Shown here: piece after piece, positions 12,166 through 40,097 of the stretch
How the letters are laid out: each line of letters opens with the position of its first letter
How positions within the stretch are numbered: position 1 is the stretch's first letter
Source: an uncultured Candidatus Saccharibacteria bacterium
Lineage (GTDB): Bacteria; Patescibacteriota; Minisyncoccia; 2-02-FULL-40-12; IGHO2-01-FULL-4-A
Assembly: GCA_964367475.1 (NCBI GenBank)
Contig: CAYIXQ010000002.1
Coordinates: 1 to 45,032, forward strand
Length of the DNA stretch: 45,032 nucleotides
Direction: 5' to 3'
Position numbers and translations under genes: made by a program
Notes under the pieces: generated by a model
What the model was told of the DNA's origin: nothing
Databases searched by the model: none
What the model saw: the letters and a program-made list of their open reading frames with translations, nothing else

Positions 12166-12187
12166 TAGGACTTACGCGTAAATCCTA
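12166..12187. repeat. Family-1 mini palindrome: the two 13-bp TIRs fused through the shared CGCG (one mismatch)
   Basis: TAGGACTTACGCGTAAATCCTA vs TIRs TAGGACTTACGCG / CGCGTAAGTCCTA. Confidence 0.8.
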
Positions 12188-21137: not shown

Positions 21138-21190
21138 AAAACCCCGCGTAAGGCCGGGGTAAGGCTTGGGCTGAAACGAACGTTTAAAAT

Positions 21191-21368
21191 TAGGACTTAC
21201 GCGCTTGAGCCACGAAGCCCAAGGCTATTAGGGCTTACCATGGCTCAAGCCACAAGGGTTTGGCCAATTTCTTTGTTAAAATCTACGTTTGAGACTCGCC
21301 GTACCTGCTAGTACGTCTCGTCTCAAGCCTCGATTTTGCCTTGAACTTGGCCAAACGCGTAAGTCCTA
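21191..21368 (+). mobile_element. Family-1 MITE-like structured repeat, copy A (178 bp)
   Basis: 13-bp TIRs TAGGACTTACGCG/CGCGTAAGTCCTA, flanking direct repeat AAAAT/AAAAT, 2 substitutions vs copy D. Confidence 0.7.
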
Positions 21369-21539
21369 AAAATGATAAGATGAAATCTGGAGGGTGGCCG
21401 GATACTTTTAGTGTAGGTGTGCCGCCGGGCACGCGCACTAATAATGTACCACTCAAAACCACCCCATAAGCTCGAAGGTCATTTTCTTCCCTTTCGAGTT
21501 AATTCATATTAGCTTAAAATATATCACCATGTCAAATTT

Positions 21540-22661
21540 ATGACCATTAAAAGAATTTTACTAGTTGGCGGCAATACCGGAGGGCACGTTTATCCGCTTT
21601 TTGCGGTGGCAGAAAGTTTGGGCGAGGCCGCGAGCCAAAGTAGCATCGAAATAGATATTAGGTTTATGGGAGATGGTGATATATTAAAACAGGAAGCGCA
21701 AAAGTTAGGCCTTAAATCATATCAGATCTTAAATTCTAAATGGCGCAGATATCTTAGTCTTAAAAATTTCATAGATATTTTTAAATTGCCCATCGGCATA
21801 ATCCAAACATTATTTTTCCTCTGGCTTTACATGCCTGATATCATTTTTTCCAAAGGGGGATATGCTTCGCTTTTACCTTGTTTGATTGGCCGGCTCTATT
21901 TAATTCCTATTTTTATTCACGAATCTGACGCTGTACCGGGGATTACCAATAAATTTCTAAGTCATTTTGCCAAAAAAGTTTACCTGGCTCTGACAGTAGC
22001 AGCGAAATATTTTATGCCAGATAAAACAGAAGTCGTCGGGTGCCCCGTTAGAAAAAAAATTTTGCAGGGAGATAGGATTCAAGCCTACACATTTTTCAAG
22101 CTTGATCCTAATAAGCCCACCGTTCTTGTCACCGGGGCTAGTCAGGGAGCCAAGATCGTTAACGACGTTTTGTTACTATCACTGGTAGAGCTATCAAAAA
22201 AGTTTCAAGTGATCCACCAGACGGGTCTAAGGAACTTTGACAATGTAAATGGACAGATAACCAAGTTGCTGGCCGAGGGAAAGAACACATATGCTGAAGG
22301 CCTGAAAAATAATTATAGAATCTATCCGGTATTTGATGTCGAGCAAATGGCCTTAGGATACGCCGCGGCCGATGTCATTATATCACGCAGCGGATCACAA
22401 ATCTTTGAATCGGCCGCGGTCGGCAAGCCGAGTATTGTTATTCCTCTAAAAAATTCTGGGCAGGATCATCAGCGCGCCAATGCGCGAGAATTTGCTAAAT
22501 TTGGCGCTATTGTTATCGAGGAAGATAATCTTACACCCCACATCTTGATCAATGAAATTGAGAAGGCATATGATCAGCGTCAATCTCTTTCCGAAAAAGT
22601 CAGAGTTTTCGCGAATTTAAACTCGGCTGATATAATTGCCAATCAGCTCCTGAATACTTAA
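21540..22661 (+). CDS. murG: Lipid II-forming UDP-GlcNAc transferase MurG
   Basis: N-terminal GGNTGGHVYPL glycine loop, GT28 two-domain layout. Confidence 0.93.
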   Translation: MTIKRILLVGGNTGGHVYPLFAVAESLGEAASQSSIEIDIRFMGDGDILKQEAQKLGLKSYQILNSKWRRYLSLKNFIDIFKLPIGIIQTLFFLWLYMPDIIFSKGGYASLLPCLIGRLYLIPIFIHESDAVPGITNKFLSHFAKKVYLALTVAAKYFMPDKTEVVGCPVRKKILQGDRIQAYTFFKLDPNKPTVLVTGASQGAKIVNDVLLLSLVELSKKFQVIHQTGLRNFDNVNGQITKLLAEGKNTYAEGLKNNYRIYPVFDVEQMALGYAAADVIISRSGSQIFESAAVGKPSIVIPLKNSGQDHQRANAREFAKFGAIVIEEDNLTPHILINEIEKAYDQRQSLSEKVRVFANLNSADIIANQLLNT

Positions 22662-22677
22662 ATATTGAAATATTATA

Positions 22678-22854
22678 TAGGACTTACGCGTTTGGCCAAG
22701 TTCAAGGCAAAATCGAGCATTGGGACGAACCATAGTAATACTATGGTGAGGACCAAGCGGAGATTTTAACGAAGAAATTGGCCAAACCCTTGCGGCTTGA
22801 GCCACGGTAAGCCCTAAAAAACCTGGGCTTCGTGGCTCAAGCACGTAAGTCCTA
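22678..22854 (-). mobile_element. Family-1 repeat, copy B (177 bp, inverted, diverged; different apical hairpin)
   Basis: Same TIRs (one mismatch), same hairpin-1 stem and long stem; central 40 nt unrelated but again palindromic (22729-22747). Confidence 0.65.
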
Positions 22855-28980: not shown

Positions 28981-29000
28981 TTAGCGCGTGAGTCCTAATA
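28981..29000. repeat. Degraded family-1 TIR remnant between mreC and mreD
   Basis: TTAG-CGCGTGAGTCCTAATAAA; CGCGTGAGTCCTAATAAA matches the right end plus flank of copy C at 17 of 18 positions. Confidence 0.45.
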
Positions 29001-35029: not shown

Positions 35030-35839
35030 TTGGCCATTTATAAATATCGGGATCAGCTAAGGCAAAAAAAAAGAAAGCAGAAGTTAATGAAAGTAGCGTT
35101 ACTGCTGGTTATTTTTTTATTTGGCATAGCCGGCCTGGTGTACTTACTATTTTTTGCCGGCCTGTTTGAAGTGAAAACGATTAGTGTCAGGGGTAATACT
35201 ATTGTGCCAACAACCGATATTGAGCGTCCAATCAGGGACTGGTTGGATCAAAAAAAGTTTGGTATTGCCCGAAAATCGAATTCTCTCCTTTTTTCTCTAG
35301 AGAACCTTAGGGCAATCATTTCTGCAAATATTTCCACAATTGATTCCATAAAATCCTCACGGACTTCGCTGCATGAAATTATTTTCGAAGTCACGGAACG
35401 AAAGGCGGTAGGAATCTGGTGCTTTCAACCTGCCTCCGCCTGCTATCTATTCGACAAACATGGCACAATCTATGGGCAAACTTTTTTAACGGACGGGCTG
35501 ATTTATATAACGGTAAAAGATTTTCGTAGCCGAGAGATTAAAATCGGCGATTCAATCGCTGACGAGTTTTACCGAAATATCTTATTAGCCAAAGAAGAAT
35601 TGGTGAAGGCGGGGTTAACTGTTATTGAGTTTTCCATACCGGAAAACTCATTCGCTGAATTCCACGCCAAGGTTATAGGTGAGAATGCGCCGTTTTTAGT
35701 AAAGTTGAGCCAAATGACAAATATTCCGGAACAAATCAACTCACTATCACTATTCCTTAAAAAAACATCTGGTTCTACTCGGGCTCTTAATTTTGAATAC
35801 ATTGATCTACGCATCCAAGATAGGATTTATTATAAATAG
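35030..35839 (+). CDS. ftsQ: FtsQ-like cell-division protein with POTRA domain (start TTG 35030 or ATG 35087); the TAG stop is the first 3 nt of repeat copy C
   Basis: Basic N-terminus, one TM, FEVKTISVRGNTIVPTTDIE POTRA signature. Confidence 0.75.
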   Translation: MAIYKYRDQLRQKKRKQKLMKVALLLVIFLFGIAGLVYLLFFAGLFEVKTISVRGNTIVPTTDIERPIRDWLDQKKFGIARKSNSLLFSLENLRAIISANISTIDSIKSSRTSLHEIIFEVTERKAVGIWCFQPASACYLFDKHGTIYGQTFLTDGLIYITVKDFRSREIKIGDSIADEFYRNILLAKEELVKAGLTVIEFSIPENSFAEFHAKVIGENAPFLVKLSQMTNIPEQINSLSLFLKKTSGSTRALNFEYIDLRIQDRIYYK

Positions 35840-36014
35840 GACTTACGCGCTTGAGCCACGAAGCCCAAGGCTATTAGGGCTTATCGTGGCTCAAGCCACA
35901 AGGGTTTGGCCAATTTCTTTGTTAAAATCTACGTTTGAGACTCGCCGTACCTGCTAGTACGTCTCGTCTCAAGCCTCGATTTTGCCTCGAAATTGGCCAA
36001 ACGCGTAAGTCCTA
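35837..36014 (+). mobile_element. Family-1 MITE-like repeat, copy C (178 bp)
   Basis: Perfect TIRs, flanking direct repeat ATAAA/ATAAA, 2 substitutions vs copy D (35988, 35992). Confidence 0.7.
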
Positions 36015-36573: not shown

Positions 36574-38385
36574 TTATTTAATATTGTAAACAAATATTGA
36601 GTTACCGATGATGGTTATGGGTTCGAAGGCCTTAAGCCAATTATTGTAATTAACGTTATTGTGATCGTCGGGAGTGCCTTGTGACCCCTGCAAAAAGGTT
36701 GCCGATACTGCCAACCACCCGTCACTATCGCTGCGTTTTAGAAAATCAGCAGCATTTTTATATTTGGTGGAAGTCAGCCAAATAAACCTATCTTTTAAAT
36801 AATAGGCCGGATCCGCCCAGCCAAAGTAATCCACCTCGATTCTCTTTATATCATTTGCTTCTACCCAACGACTTAGACGCAACAAATCCTGACCCCAGTC
36901 TAAATTGGAATCAACCACATAACGATAGCCGCCCGCCGGTCCACCCGCGATTTGATTAAAATAGGAAAGATAGTAGGGGAAAACTTTTGCATTTTCGTAG
37001 AAGTGCCACGACAAAAGAATGGCCACCGCTGTTGGCACAATTACTGAAACAAATGTTGCCCGATTTAACTGGCCGGCTTTCTCATGTACTTTTTTAATTA
37101 ATTTAGAAATCTGACCGCTAACCAATAATATGGCGAATGGAAAAGTCGGCAGTAAATGCCGCACGCCGATATTGAGATTGCTTTTGATACTGGTCGTCCA
37201 ATAGATCACTAGCCAAATAATCATAGCAAACTCATCAAAGTGATTTCTGATCCAGTCCGCGATGCTTTTCGCTTTAAACTCTGAACTTTTAACTTGAGTA
37301 CCAATCATAAGAATTGCAATCAGTGTGAGTATCCACCAGGCCAAGGTTTCCTTGAGGAAATAAACAATGGGGAAATACGATCGCCAGCCCGCGGCTGAGA
37401 CCTCGCCCAGGAAAAAAGTAGTGTTACCGCCAGTCGAGCGTTGAACAACCATAAGGAGGCCAAGAAAATATTGCCCCAAAGCTCGCAGATATGGTTTATC
37501 GGCCAGCCAGATCACTGTATCAGCCAGAGCGCGGTTGCCAAAGGATCCGAGGAGAAACTGTGTGTCATCCATCTGTCGTTCTACTGGATATCCGTGGACG
37601 TGAAAATAATAAACGGGCCAAACCACTATTACTAAGCCAATAATGGCCACCAACATTACCCGCGTAAACTGCCGCGCCACCGCGTTTATTTTCTCTGTTA
37701 GTTGGCTACCAGCCATTACCCACCCATAGATTATCGCCAAAATCATAAACAAAGGCCCAACCAGAAAAGTGGAAAATTTTGTCAGTAAGGCCACTCCCAA
37801 TGATATTCCAGAAATAAATAAATTTTTGCCGCTTGGGACCCTTAAATACTTAATAAAAAAATAGAGGGCAAACAAAACCCCAAATAAGGCCGGTACGTCC
37901 GTGGTCACAAACCGGGCGTGGGCGATAACGGAAGGTGAAAATGCGAATAGCACTAAAGCGATAATAGCGCCCAGGTACCCATACAAACGTTTTCCCCAGA
38001 GGTAGATCAAAGTGGCCGAAAGGGTAAAAAATAACAGCATTGGAAACTTAACCCAATGCTTAATTGTGTCCGCGTCATTGTCAGAATTAAACATAAAATA
38101 ACGGCCGAATTCCCACTGACCATTAATATCAGTTTGCCAAAATTTTTGTTCGAAAACTGACTGCTTGAAGTCTAAAAATACCAACGGCAGTGCCGCTAGA
38201 TCTTTGGCCAGAGGCGGATGCTCTGGGTTTAAGCGCATATCTTGCCTGGTCAAATAGGAATACCCGGCCCCAATGTGAGGCACCTCGTCCACAATTACCG
38301 AATCATCCCAGGCGCTGGTGATCGCCAAAAAAACGGCAAAAATAATAACAAAAATCGCGAACCAGTCTAGCTTATTTATTTTCAT
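36574..38385 (-). CDS. GT39/PMT-ArnT-like polyprenyl-phosphate-dependent glycosyltransferase (603 aa)
   Basis: Polytopic N-terminal half with first-loop acidic motif DDSVIVDEVPH, large C-terminal soluble domain. Confidence 0.75.
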   Translation of the reverse strand: MKINKLDWFAIFVIIFAVFLAITSAWDDSVIVDEVPHIGAGYSYLTRQDMRLNPEHPPLAKDLAALPLVFLDFKQSVFEQKFWQTDINGQWEFGRYFMFNSDNDADTIKHWVKFPMLLFFTLSATLIYLWGKRLYGYLGAIIALVLFAFSPSVIAHARFVTTDVPALFGVLFALYFFIKYLRVPSGKNLFISGISLGVALLTKFSTFLVGPLFMILAIIYGWVMAGSQLTEKINAVARQFTRVMLVAIIGLVIVVWPVYYFHVHGYPVERQMDDTQFLLGSFGNRALADTVIWLADKPYLRALGQYFLGLLMVVQRSTGGNTTFFLGEVSAAGWRSYFPIVYFLKETLAWWILTLIAILMIGTQVKSSEFKAKSIADWIRNHFDEFAMIIWLVIYWTTSIKSNLNIGVRHLLPTFPFAILLVSGQISKLIKKVHEKAGQLNRATFVSVIVPTAVAILLSWHFYENAKVFPYYLSYFNQIAGGPAGGYRYVVDSNLDWGQDLLRLSRWVEANDIKRIEVDYFGWADPAYYLKDRFIWLTSTKYKNAADFLKRSDSDGWLAVSATFLQGSQGTPDDHNNVNYNNWLKAFEPITIIGNSIFVYNIK

Positions 38386-39916
38386 TTTCCAGTAGAATCA
38401 CTACCGAAGCTTTGTTGTATTGGCCGCTTCGATGTTGTTCCTCGGTTAAATAATAAATATTTTTTTGCGCTTGCTTTTCCGGGGTATATGTATCGGTAAT
38501 GTACATAACGGTTTGAGCCGACATGGGGATATTGTTTATAAGAACGCCGTCGACGTTTACCACCACATATTTTTTAATACTTCTGGGCAATTGTTCCACG
38601 TAATTTCCAATTTCGACGTAGCGGGCACTAAAGGCGGGCGGTACGTTAGGATTGAGGGCCCATTTAAAAAAGTAGCGGTCAAATTCGAAGACCATGCTGG
38701 CTATGAGAAAAATCACTATTACCAAACCAGCAATAAAATTTCCTTCATGAACGTGAAGCTTACCGAGTCTCAAGTCATGAAAATCTCTTGCCCCGTACCA
38801 TTTTCTGACAAATTCATAAATCCACCATAGACCTTCACCGGCAAAAATAAACACCACCGGTGCAAGAATAATAGCTCGCAGAGCGTGGGGCAAACCTTCG
38901 TTTGACAATATAACCGGTAAAAGGCCCAAGAAAAACCATGAGATTAGCAACACTCTAACGGTGGGCAAATGCCTATGTTTATCGTAGTCATCCGCCAGTT
39001 TGATTAAGTTGCGAGTAAAACCGATGATAAAGAAAATACCGACTGGCCAGAAGAGCAGGGGATCGCCAGAGTAATTGTGACGCCAGTTATAATCACCTAC
39101 GAAATTAAACATGGCCAAAGTCTTCGCCAAATTTACTGTCAGACTGACTAACGGATTAGCGGAAGTAAAGATCGAGAGTTGACCGGTTCGTCCCAGGAAA
39201 TCCCCTGGGTTATTGTAGTAGTAGAGTCCAATCGGCAGCGCCACGATAATTACCGTAATCATAAATAGGGCCATTCCTTTTATAAGCCGATCGCGAGTGT
39301 ATTGATATTTCCCATGCGAAAAATCTTTTTTTAGCGAATACCAGTAGGCGAACAACGCCAAAATCATGGCTAGGGGCATAATCCGAAAAGCAATATAAGT
39401 ATAAAAACCTAATCCCCAAAAAATTCCACTGACGAAAAAATAACGCAATCGGTTTTGTTCAAGCCCGCGCCAAAAAAAATAAAATCCCCAAACCAAAAGA
39501 AACGGCGCCATGATGGCCCGAAAGCCAATGCGCGAGAAAAGCGTATGCCAAAAAGAGGTCGCCATTAGAAAACTGGATATGGCCCCGATCTGCCAGTTGA
39601 ATAATTGCCTAGCCAGAAAGTATGTCCCTAATACCGTGAAAACGCCAAATATAGCCGAGACAATTCGCAAAGCCCAAGGATGATTGCCAAAAGTTTTTAG
39701 GGACAGCGCCTGAATATTTATGAATAATCCTTCACGGCCGTTGTTCTCCGGATAAAAAACTTTGAATTCCCCGGTCTGTAGCGCCTCCAGCGCATTATTG
39801 CCATTCATGGCCTCATCCGGATAAAGTCCAGGCGGAATAGATTGGATTCGATAAAACCTAAACACCACCGCTATCGCGACAATAACAAAAACCAATAAAA
39901 ACCTCTTTTTTAACAT
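38372..39916 (-). CDS. GT39/GT83 ArnT-like membrane glycosyltransferase (514 aa)
   Basis: PPGLYPDEAMNGNNA first-loop motif, about 11 TM; 14-nt overlap with the downstream paralogue. Confidence 0.75.
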   Translation of the reverse strand: MLKKRFLLVFVIVAIAVVFRFYRIQSIPPGLYPDEAMNGNNALEALQTGEFKVFYPENNGREGLFINIQALSLKTFGNHPWALRIVSAIFGVFTVLGTYFLARQLFNWQIGAISSFLMATSFWHTLFSRIGFRAIMAPFLLVWGFYFFWRGLEQNRLRYFFVSGIFWGLGFYTYIAFRIMPLAMILALFAYWYSLKKDFSHGKYQYTRDRLIKGMALFMITVIIVALPIGLYYYNNPGDFLGRTGQLSIFTSANPLVSLTVNLAKTLAMFNFVGDYNWRHNYSGDPLLFWPVGIFFIIGFTRNLIKLADDYDKHRHLPTVRVLLISWFFLGLLPVILSNEGLPHALRAIILAPVVFIFAGEGLWWIYEFVRKWYGARDFHDLRLGKLHVHEGNFIAGLVIVIFLIASMVFEFDRYFFKWALNPNVPPAFSARYVEIGNYVEQLPRSIKKYVVVNVDGVLINNIPMSAQTVMYITDTYTPEKQAQKNIYYLTEEQHRSGQYNKASVVILLENENK

Positions 39917-39919
39917 ATT

Positions 39920-40097
39920 TAGGACTTACGCGCTTGAGCCACGAAGCCCAAGGCTATTAGGGCTTATCGTGGCTCAAGCCACAAGGGTTTGGCCAATTTC
40001 TTTGTTAAAATCTACGTTTGAGACTCGCCGTACCTGCTAGTACGTCTCGTCTCAAGCCTCGATTTTGCCTTGAACTTGGCCAAACGCGTAAGTCCTA
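39920..40097 (+). mobile_element. Family-1 MITE-like repeat, copy D (178 bp), 3 nt from the glycosyltransferase start codon
   Basis: Perfect TIRs, flanks ATATT/ATGTT (4 of 5). Confidence 0.7.

Follow-up and report, generated by a model that had tools for sequence, protein, structure and literature searches.

ISAba11, an insertion sequence (IS) of the IS701 family found in Acinetobacter, is about 1.1 kb long, encodes its own 342-aa DDE transposase and is flanked by a 5-bp direct repeat that has been called characteristic of it (PMC7885321). ISPlag1 of Planktothrix (1306 bp) has an IS701-group transposase and the terminal inverted repeat (TIR) CAGGACTTACGCAAGCACGCTATATATAG, and is accompanied by short non-coding derivatives bounded by the same TIR, the 197-bp remnants (PMC2464740). 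Classical IS701, by contrast, has a target-site duplication (TSD) of 4 bp (PMC2266710). Here, a short repeat with ends of this type is described from the contig CAYIXQ010000002.1, labelled uncultured Candidatus Saccharibacteria, which was obtained from 0.1-um-filtered Hainich groundwater (well H51) and the whole of which, 45,032 nucleotides, is the window analysed. The four copies in the window very probably belong to a non-autonomous miniature inverted-repeat transposable element (MITE) with IS701 ends of the ISAba11/ISPlag1 type, which would be moved in trans and has been amplified independently in Patescibacteria.

Copy A (178 bp, 21191-21368, + strand) starts with the 13-bp TIR TAGGACTTACGCG (21191-21203, + strand) and ends with its counterpart CGCGTAAGTCCTA (21356-21368, + strand), and the TSD AAAAT stands directly outside both ends (21186-21190 and 21369-21373). 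The TIRs are equally perfect in copies C (35837-36014, + strand, TSD ATAAA) and D (39920-40097, + strand, TSD ATATT/ATGTT). Aligned to D, copy A departs from it at 21238 and 21240 only, and copy C at 35988 and 35992 only. Copy B (177 bp, 22678-22854, inverted on the - strand) is one base shorter and ~87% identical to A, with a single TIR mismatch (CACG instead of CGCG) and no recognisable TSD, and is an older insertion. The coordinates and orientations of the four copies, the positions at which A, C and D differ and the flanking 5-mers, including their lack in B, had been reported in a first-pass annotation of this DNA and were all recovered here by repeat search, an nhmmer profile of the family and alignment. 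The 13-bp inverted repeat that it described is likewise real: with up to two mismatches allowed, the window holds 11 instances of the 13-mer TAGGACTTACGCG, where dinucleotide shuffles predict 0.43, and eight of the 11 are the two ends of A to D. Neither the generic repeat search nor the nhmmer family profile found further copies in the window. As a list of TIR sites, the annotation was incomplete, having missed a palindrome and a half-site. The 22-bp palindrome TAGGACTTACGCGTAAATCCTA (12166-12187) consists of two TIRs fused at their common CGCG, without interior or TSD, and is probably the deletion remnant of a copy; the single half-site CGCGTGAGTCCTA (28985-28997, - strand, one mismatch) is probably a remnant as well. 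Similar interior-less TIR-TIR remnants of 22-27 bp occur elsewhere (L002:5117-5138 and L067:5361-5387), and these palindromes look like the product of a deletion between the CGCG tetramers that form the inner edge of each TIR. No open reading frame (ORF) of at least 80 aa lies within any window copy, the ORF at 35030-35839 overlapping C by its stop codon only, and no transposase or recombinase gene is encoded in the window, which agrees with the annotation on both counts.

A scan of one genome per species for the exact pattern TIR-N(137-167)-TIR yielded 101 blocks of 8 kb, in which, at slightly wider spacing, 107 further TIR-bounded elements of 141-194 bp are found, making 111 with those of the window. 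The 107 elements come from ~26 metagenome-assembled genomes (MAGs), mainly of Patescibacteria, most of which are labelled Doudnabacteria, Yanofskybacteria, Taylorbacteria, 'Patescibacteria group' or 'Candidatus Saccharibacteria'. The Saccharibacteria label comes from bulk third-party assemblies and is perhaps generic. The architecture and conserved motifs of the window copies are shared by about 90 of all 111 elements (group F1), and the remainder have the 13-17 bp TIR alone in common.

The flanks of these elements give evidence of mobility. A perfect 5-bp direct repeat lies directly outside TAGG...CCTA in 70 of the 111 elements, and a 5-bp repeat with at most one mismatch in 88, whereas random re-pairing of left and right flanks gave means of 1.5 (maximum 6) and 7.8 (maximum 15), respectively. 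Repeats of 2-4 and 6-9 bp are at background, leaving 5 bp as the sole enriched length, and this enrichment fixes both the boundaries of the element and the stagger. The target is AT-rich within the 5 bp, and its flanks, as reconstructed, are mirror-symmetric: on the left there is T at -6 and A, never C, at -2, and on the right the second base after the TSD is T, never G, with the fourth to sixth bases A-rich. Such symmetry would be expected of a transposase complex with two-fold symmetry. The TIRs were also considered as the halves of a 22-bp palindrome that had served as insertion target, which was rejected given that the TSD lies outside the TIRs, and a TA duplication of the IS630/Tc1 type was rejected given that 2-bp repeats do not exceed background.

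The distribution of the copies leads in the same direction. Within a genome they are near-identical (24 copies with a median identity of 99.4% in MAG JBBTTG, and 19 copies in JBAZQK), whereas between genomes they are just 60-84% identical and each genome has its own subfamily, which is the pattern of independent bursts. The element is found in both orientations, and its flanking genes are unrelated at every locus, with only one syntenic pair emerging from an all-against-all clustering of ORFs. Different intergenic spaces are occupied in the syntenic Doudnabacteria loci L035 and L058, and in the nearest syntenic relative of the window (L106, MurG 62% identical) there is no copy on either side of murG. 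No base-perfect empty site was obtained, the relatives being too diverged. With TIRs at both ends, a TSD of fixed length, a small non-coding body and dispersed, non-orthologous copies, the repeat has the features of a MITE, and the mobile, non-autonomous and recently spread element with 5-bp duplications that the first-pass annotation proposed is supported.

The ends of the element are those of IS701-type insertion sequences. The TIR, 13-17 bp long, starts TAGG, and 12 of its 13 bases (TAGGACTTACGCG versus TAGGACTTACGCA) are shared with ISAba11, with an A. baumannii IS in L115 (ends TAGGACTTACGCA...TGCGTAAGTCCTA) and with the ISs of L126-L133, which measure ~1.08-1.09 kb and end in TAGGACTTACGCAAAA. 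On plasmid pAC1530, ISAba11 reads TATAG-TAGGACTTACGCATTG...GTGCGTAAGTCCTA-TATAG, with a 5-bp TSD; its AT-rich duplications (TATAG, ATTTA) resemble AAAAT and ATAAA of the window, while its length and transposase set it apart from a 178-bp element without ORF, as do the lack of detectable likeness inside the TIR and a host of a different phylum. Three full-length ISs were recovered from the plasmid collection, namely this ISAba11, the IS of L115 and an intact ISPlag1 in L114; the published ISPlag1 had come up in a text search for the TIR core. ISPlag1 shares the core CAGGACTTACGC and its TIR starts CAGGACTTACGCAAG..., differing in its first base, C instead of T, and in a length of 29 bp that continues into unrelated sequence. 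The ISPlag1 remnants arose by deletion from that one IS; the window family, by contrast, is marked by a conserved structured interior of its own.

Against the IS701 family model NF049921 of NCBIfam (cutoff 250), the L114 transposase scores 408 bits and that of L115 354 bits, and both carry the Pfam domains DDE_Tnp_1 and DDE_5. ISAba11 is only 27-31% identical to these two transposases, yet the same end sequence has been kept. In addition, the end (C/T)AGGACTTACGC is common to all of 19 further ISs, which were collected through homologues of the L114/L115 transposases from public assemblies and one viral contig. The CAGG variant of the end is that of ISPlag1, L116-L125 and L135-L138, and the ISs of L121 and L135, with the TIR CAGGACTTACGCA, have perfect 5-bp TSDs (AGGGT and CGAGT, respectively). 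The window element has the (C/T)AGGACTTACGC end and the 5-bp TSD of the ISAba11/ISPlag1 type, and does not encode a DDE transposase (NF049921/NF033540, with DDE_Tnp_1 and DDE_5). Given that it has no ORF, it is not itself a member of IS701; it is non-autonomous with IS701-type ends and, on account of these ends and of the ISAba11-type duplication, can be described as a non-autonomous MITE of the IS701/ISAba11 type. At L116:2676-2767 and at L117:1804-1895 and 2043-2134, MITEs of ~90 bp with the ends CAGGACTTACGCAGTTGGACG... adjoin a full IS701-type IS; this IS branch gives rise to MITEs in other lineages as well.

From these ends we infer that the element is mobilised in trans by an IS701-type transposase within these cells. 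The enzyme would come from a full-length IS, located either at another site of the genome or on a different replicon, and would bind both TIRs. Insertion would then occur at AT-rich sites with symmetric flanks, through cuts staggered by 5 bp whose repair would leave the 5-bp duplication, and the family would have been amplified independently in many Patescibacteria genomes. Given the homology of IS701 to IS4/Tn5-type enzymes, the reaction is expected to follow DDE cut-and-paste chemistry.

Several observations weigh against this explanation. The 5-bp duplication is found in the ISAba11-type branch only, and not in classical IS701. The likeness to the sampled ISs stops at the terminal 12-13 bp, an nhmmer search with the family profile of 24 loci that contain IS701-type ISs or MITEs having given non-significant E values, and an origin by internal deletion from one of the sampled ISs is therefore unsupported. 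Neither a conserved interior with compensatory changes nor an orientation bias of ~3:1, both described below, is predicted for a plain selfish MITE. Finally, the Patescibacteria sequences examined gave no autonomous IS bounded by these ends, the host genomes having been read as fragments only. The transposases of ISPlag1 and of the A. baumannii IS were run by tblastn against the loci collected here, and neither the window nor the 101 MAG blocks gave an IS701-family gene; these blocks also lack a relevant recurrent ORF or long inverted-repeat pair with TSD. The viral contigs contain no cognate autonomous element, no copy of the MITE and none of its 17-bp TIR. In two protein searches with IS701 transposases, in which matches were counted at E <=1e-10, the best 120 of 6829 and the best 120 of 4972 matches belong to other phyla and include no Patescibacteria names. 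IS701-type proteins are mostly found on contigs of ~1.1-1.4 kb, meaning that the IS assembles alone as a repeat; one match stands on a 722-kb contig of gammaproteobacterium-like context. Given that short IS contigs are normally lost from MAGs, the absence of a partner is weak evidence, and full-length ISs with the same TIR core are present in other phyla. An ancestor in which the arm of the long hairpin directly follows the TIR was also considered; a scan of metagenomes of the Joint Genome Institute for this arrangement gave no IS and a single 124-bp copy without hairpin 1 (L109:1368-1491), which is flanked by a 7-bp direct repeat, ATGGTTT, instead of one of 5 bp.

The interior of the element is strongly structured. 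With RNA parameters it adopts the three-part fold drawn in the first-pass annotation: a closing stem made by the TIRs, hairpin 1 (21204-21250 in copy A, + strand) and a long imperfect hairpin (21258-21355, + strand) capped by an apical hairpin. The minimum free energy is -86.7 kcal/mol for the + strand (z = -9.8) and -91.1 for the - strand (z = -10.0). Aligned, 68 distinct F1 copies show no variation in the TIR and hardly any in the motifs GGG-YTTG..C.A, CTTCGTTA, CTCG.CGTA and TTTTGCCTCG, while hairpin 1, which differs in length and sequence between subfamilies, varies freely and is always self-complementary. RNAalifold gives 40 pairs, of which 20 show changes on both sides that preserve pairing, and several pairs occur as three or four Watson-Crick types. 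The compensatory changes are borne by the stems of the long hairpin. Counted per sequence and not per independent event, 97.0% of the cells are paired, compared with 83.5% in column shuffles and 22-41% when the partners are slid, and 304 cells carry double changes, compared with 88 in column shuffles; the covariation score is 0.317 against 0.096. Folded singly, all 68 sequences keep the TIR stem closed and have two or three inner branches, and the asymmetric internal loops CTTCGTTA / GCCTYG of the long hairpin are conserved in all 68. The fact that these loops are kept in every copy means that the family has a single ancestor and that the stems changed within that lineage; a palindrome rebuilt each time from one IS end does not account for them. 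Inspected by eye, the conserved loops gave no convincing match to K-turn, hammerhead or other ribozyme motifs, and Rfam gave none. G-U cells (~20) are no commoner than A-C cells (~22), which correspond to G-U on the opposite strand; neither strand thus stands out as the transcribed one, and the stems seem constrained to strict Watson-Crick pairing of the DNA type.

This interior raises the question of whether the MITE is also used by its host, with the three-way hairpin acting either as an RNA (for transcript end protection, as a processing site, as an attenuator or as a small RNA) or as a replication-linked structure of the DNA. Host use would explain the compensated stems and a favoured orientation, and we regard it as possible though doubtful. 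The 20 doubly compensated pairs, the 97% of cells that are paired, the covariation score, the conserved asymmetric loops and the closed TIR stem in 68 of 68 folds all speak for it. So does the orientation, given that between co-directional genes 42 copies have the orientation of copy A relative to the genes and 14 the opposite one (p = 2e-4), a bias that is strongest in MAG JBAZQK (12:1). Likewise, the window copies, all intergenic, are tight on gene ends: B lies 17 nt past the murG stop codon and 17 nt ahead of the holB start, copy C, through its opening TAG, provides ORF 35030-35839 with its stop codon, and the left end of D is 3 nt from the ATG of a minus-strand glycosyltransferase ORF (38372-39916). 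Against host use as an RNA, the stems follow strict Watson-Crick pairing as for DNA, with G-U not above A-C, and the cell counts do not represent independent events. Orientation tracks the local GC skew too (55:23), which makes an effect of the replication strand on insertion equally possible; given that genes are co-oriented with replication, the two effects are inseparable here. Neither a promoter nor a terminator is found family-wide. An outward promoter was rejected because -10-like hexamers number 23 against 31 at the other end in 94 copies and their position is not conserved, and terminator function is unsupported, with weak, non-canonical matches only; copy B has a -35-like TTGGCC 16 nt from its end and TATAAT in the flank. 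Rfam gave no match at gathering score in the whole window, copy A reaching chance level only (E >=1, 10-14 bits). The interior might assist transposition by forming a hairpin or cruciform in the DNA; alternatively, it might render an insertion tolerable or useful within transcripts. That the element is more than a selfish passenger, its interior being a selected structure kept by compensatory evolution across classes of Patescibacteria, with related motifs in Legionella and an alphaproteobacterium, seems to us rather unlikely. If it were so, the structure and the ~3:1 strand bias would together point either to transposition that depends on a strand-specific, replication-coupled DNA hairpin or cruciform, a requirement new to DDE transposases of the IS4/IS701 type, or to a domesticated RNA role at gene boundaries in minimal genomes.

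Three further explanations dispense with an IS701-type MITE altogether. An inherited, non-mobile structured regulatory RNA or cis-element at conserved positions would fit the strong predicted structure (z of about -10), the intergenic location and the conserved interior motifs, but is contradicted by 5-bp TSDs at 63-79% of copies, by unrelated flanking genes and absence from the syntenic relative, and by near-identical copies within genomes, in both orientations, without an Rfam match; it is extremely improbable. The first-pass annotation had held that copies lacking duplications and confined to syntenic positions would speak for such an RNA, and what is found is the reverse, abundant TSDs and non-syntenic positions. 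Since each strand of the element folds over its full length into a stable hairpin, with strictly complementary stems and an orientation that correlates with GC skew, a palindrome moved as single-stranded DNA by an HUH (Y1) enzyme, in the manner of REP/REPIN with RAYTs or of IS200/IS605, may also be envisaged. To our knowledge, REP/REPIN and IS200/IS605-type elements have no TSD and no matching TIR recognition ends, whereas here there is a precise 5-bp TSD with 13-bp TIRs equal to those of the DDE-type IS701; no Y1 transposase gene is present in the window, and this explanation, too, has hardly any likelihood. A MITE of another family with 5-bp TSDs, such as a Tn3-derived TIME or a derivative of IS1380, ISH3 or IS1634, is very unlikely. 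Elements of the Tn3 family, too, typically duplicate 5 bp of AT-rich DNA, and the TIMEs share with the window element this duplication, the AT-rich targets and the non-autonomous state. Tn3-type ends are however ~38 bp long and start GGGG, and no such TIR is present in the window element. ISH3 and IS1634 have TSDs of 4-6 bp, with ends that start CRGT in ISH3 and C in IS1634 (PMC2266710). The ends of the window element, by contrast, are identical over 12 bases to those of ISAba11 and of other IS701-family ISs.

An IS701-type MITE is thus a kind of element that is already known, and the family itself is new with respect to Rfam and to the literature searched, in which no paper matching it was found. 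The first-pass annotation had made novelty depend on there being no clean match to a described IS, MITE or Rfam family; in this sense novelty stands for the MITE family, and not for its ends, which match a described IS family, IS701. Structured bacterial MITEs are often found adjoining or overlapping the ends of genes, for which they can provide the stop codon. Correia elements of Neisseria, ERIC, RUP and Coxiella QMITE1/2 are, like the window element, short, TIR-bounded, intergenic and multi-copy, with stable stem-loops. They differ in their ends and partner IS families, have no sequence relation to the window family, and their TSDs are TA in Correia and RUP and 2-3 or 7-11 bp in QMITE1/2 (PMC5896051, which also gives a general description of structured bacterial MITEs). 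Identity with QMITE1/2 was rejected given that TSDs and sizes differ.

The elements outside F1 are more varied. One group has an inner TGTCATTCC...GGAATGACA repeat. In L036, L051, L076, L078, L082, L092, L101 and others, the outer TIR encloses a second inverted-repeat unit, TGTCATTCC(C)G...CGGGAATGACA, which contains ATTCCC-N8-GGGAAT-like palindromes and may be a nested or chimeric second MITE family. A 69-bp mini-element at L058:2960-3028 is related through the TIR only and has its own TSD, ATTAG. Three TIR-only copies, with the same TIR core and a 5-bp TSD, come from a MAG labelled Rickettsiales (alphaproteobacterial), which is not of the type of the Candidate Phyla Radiation (CPR) given that its blocks carry polyhydroxybutyrate depolymerase. 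A weak BLAST match of this alphaproteobacterial variant led to Legionella adelaidensis NCTC12735, where a previously undescribed 123-bp MITE with IS701-type ends, the TIR CAGGACTTACGCAAAACGT and the TSD TCTTT/TCTTT forms a single long hairpin and has at least 15 matching places in 7 records. Its motifs AAGGCAAAAA and TTTTTTAACGAAGAGAT are spaced from the ends as are GAGGCAAAAT and ATTTTAACGAAGAAAT in the window family, while it is 55 bp shorter, lacks hairpin 1 and gives an overall nhmmer E of ~1. The shared spacing is suggestive of homologous interiors, and relatives of the family in Legionella and in an alphaproteobacterium are possible. The Legionella adelaidensis records L110-L112 (NZ_LR134427.1, NZ_LR134428.1 and NZ_LR134421.1) are named 'plasmid'; given that they carry dnaE, gatCAB, aceEF and adk, they are pieces of the chromosome.

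Patescibacteria (CPR) have tiny, streamlined genomes that are usually described as poor in mobile DNA. The dozens of near-identical copies in several of these genomes imply that a DDE transposase has recently been active there. Located at gene ends, where they supply a stop codon in one instance and displace the sequence upstream of a start codon in another, the elements can alter expression in genomes with little regulatory slack. Tying the ends to IS701/ISAba11 puts forward a concrete candidate enzyme; since ISAba11 is able to transpose in Acinetobacter, it also offers a tractable experimental model. The compensated hairpins and the strand bias also make this family a good test of whether, and at which level, the secondary structure of a MITE is selected.

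The window is dense with housekeeping genes, mostly on the + strand, including genes for aminoacyl-tRNA synthetase, MurG, HolB, Frr, MreBC, PBP2, GreA, UvrB, RuvA and glycosyltransferases. Many of the proteins score below the usual family cutoffs and the best named relatives of MurG are from Yanofskybacteria (47-48% identity), which fits a Patescibacteria genome. Copy A stands between a gene for a transporter of the major facilitator superfamily and murG, and A and B, inverted with respect to one another, bracket murG (21191-22854) in the fashion of a composite transposon, a layout seen again at L030:2536-4065. A composite transposon A-murG-B was rejected, its outer flanks AAAAT and ATTTA not being a duplication, and there is therefore no sign of murG having been moved. 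Two Logan contigs with murG, L104 (1365 bp) and L105 (1364 bp), have both termini inside the flanking MITE copies, which means that the element breaks assemblies of this genome. Such breakage of short-read assemblies matters for the binning of CPR genomes and for genome finishing.

At the right end of the contig (44829-45002) there is a second structured element of ~175 bp, with the inverted-repeat arms GTTGGTGGCGGTTAGGAATGATTTTAAGGA / TCCGTGAAATTATTCCCAACCGCCACCAAC and the interior GGACCGTTGAGCAGACCGG...CGGTCTGCTCACCGGATGAAG, which is unrelated to the TAGGAC family. Its interior is resembled by another repeat, of the form ..GCACCGTTGAA-stem...stem-TTCACCGGAA.., present in each of the spaces around murG in L106 (L106:9391-10001 and L106:11131-11588); different repeat families fill the same slots in related genomes. 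ARAGORN found no complete tRNA in the window, and positions 1-30, truncated at the contig end, resemble the 3' half of a tRNA (GGTTCCGCGTTCGATTCGCGGGG).

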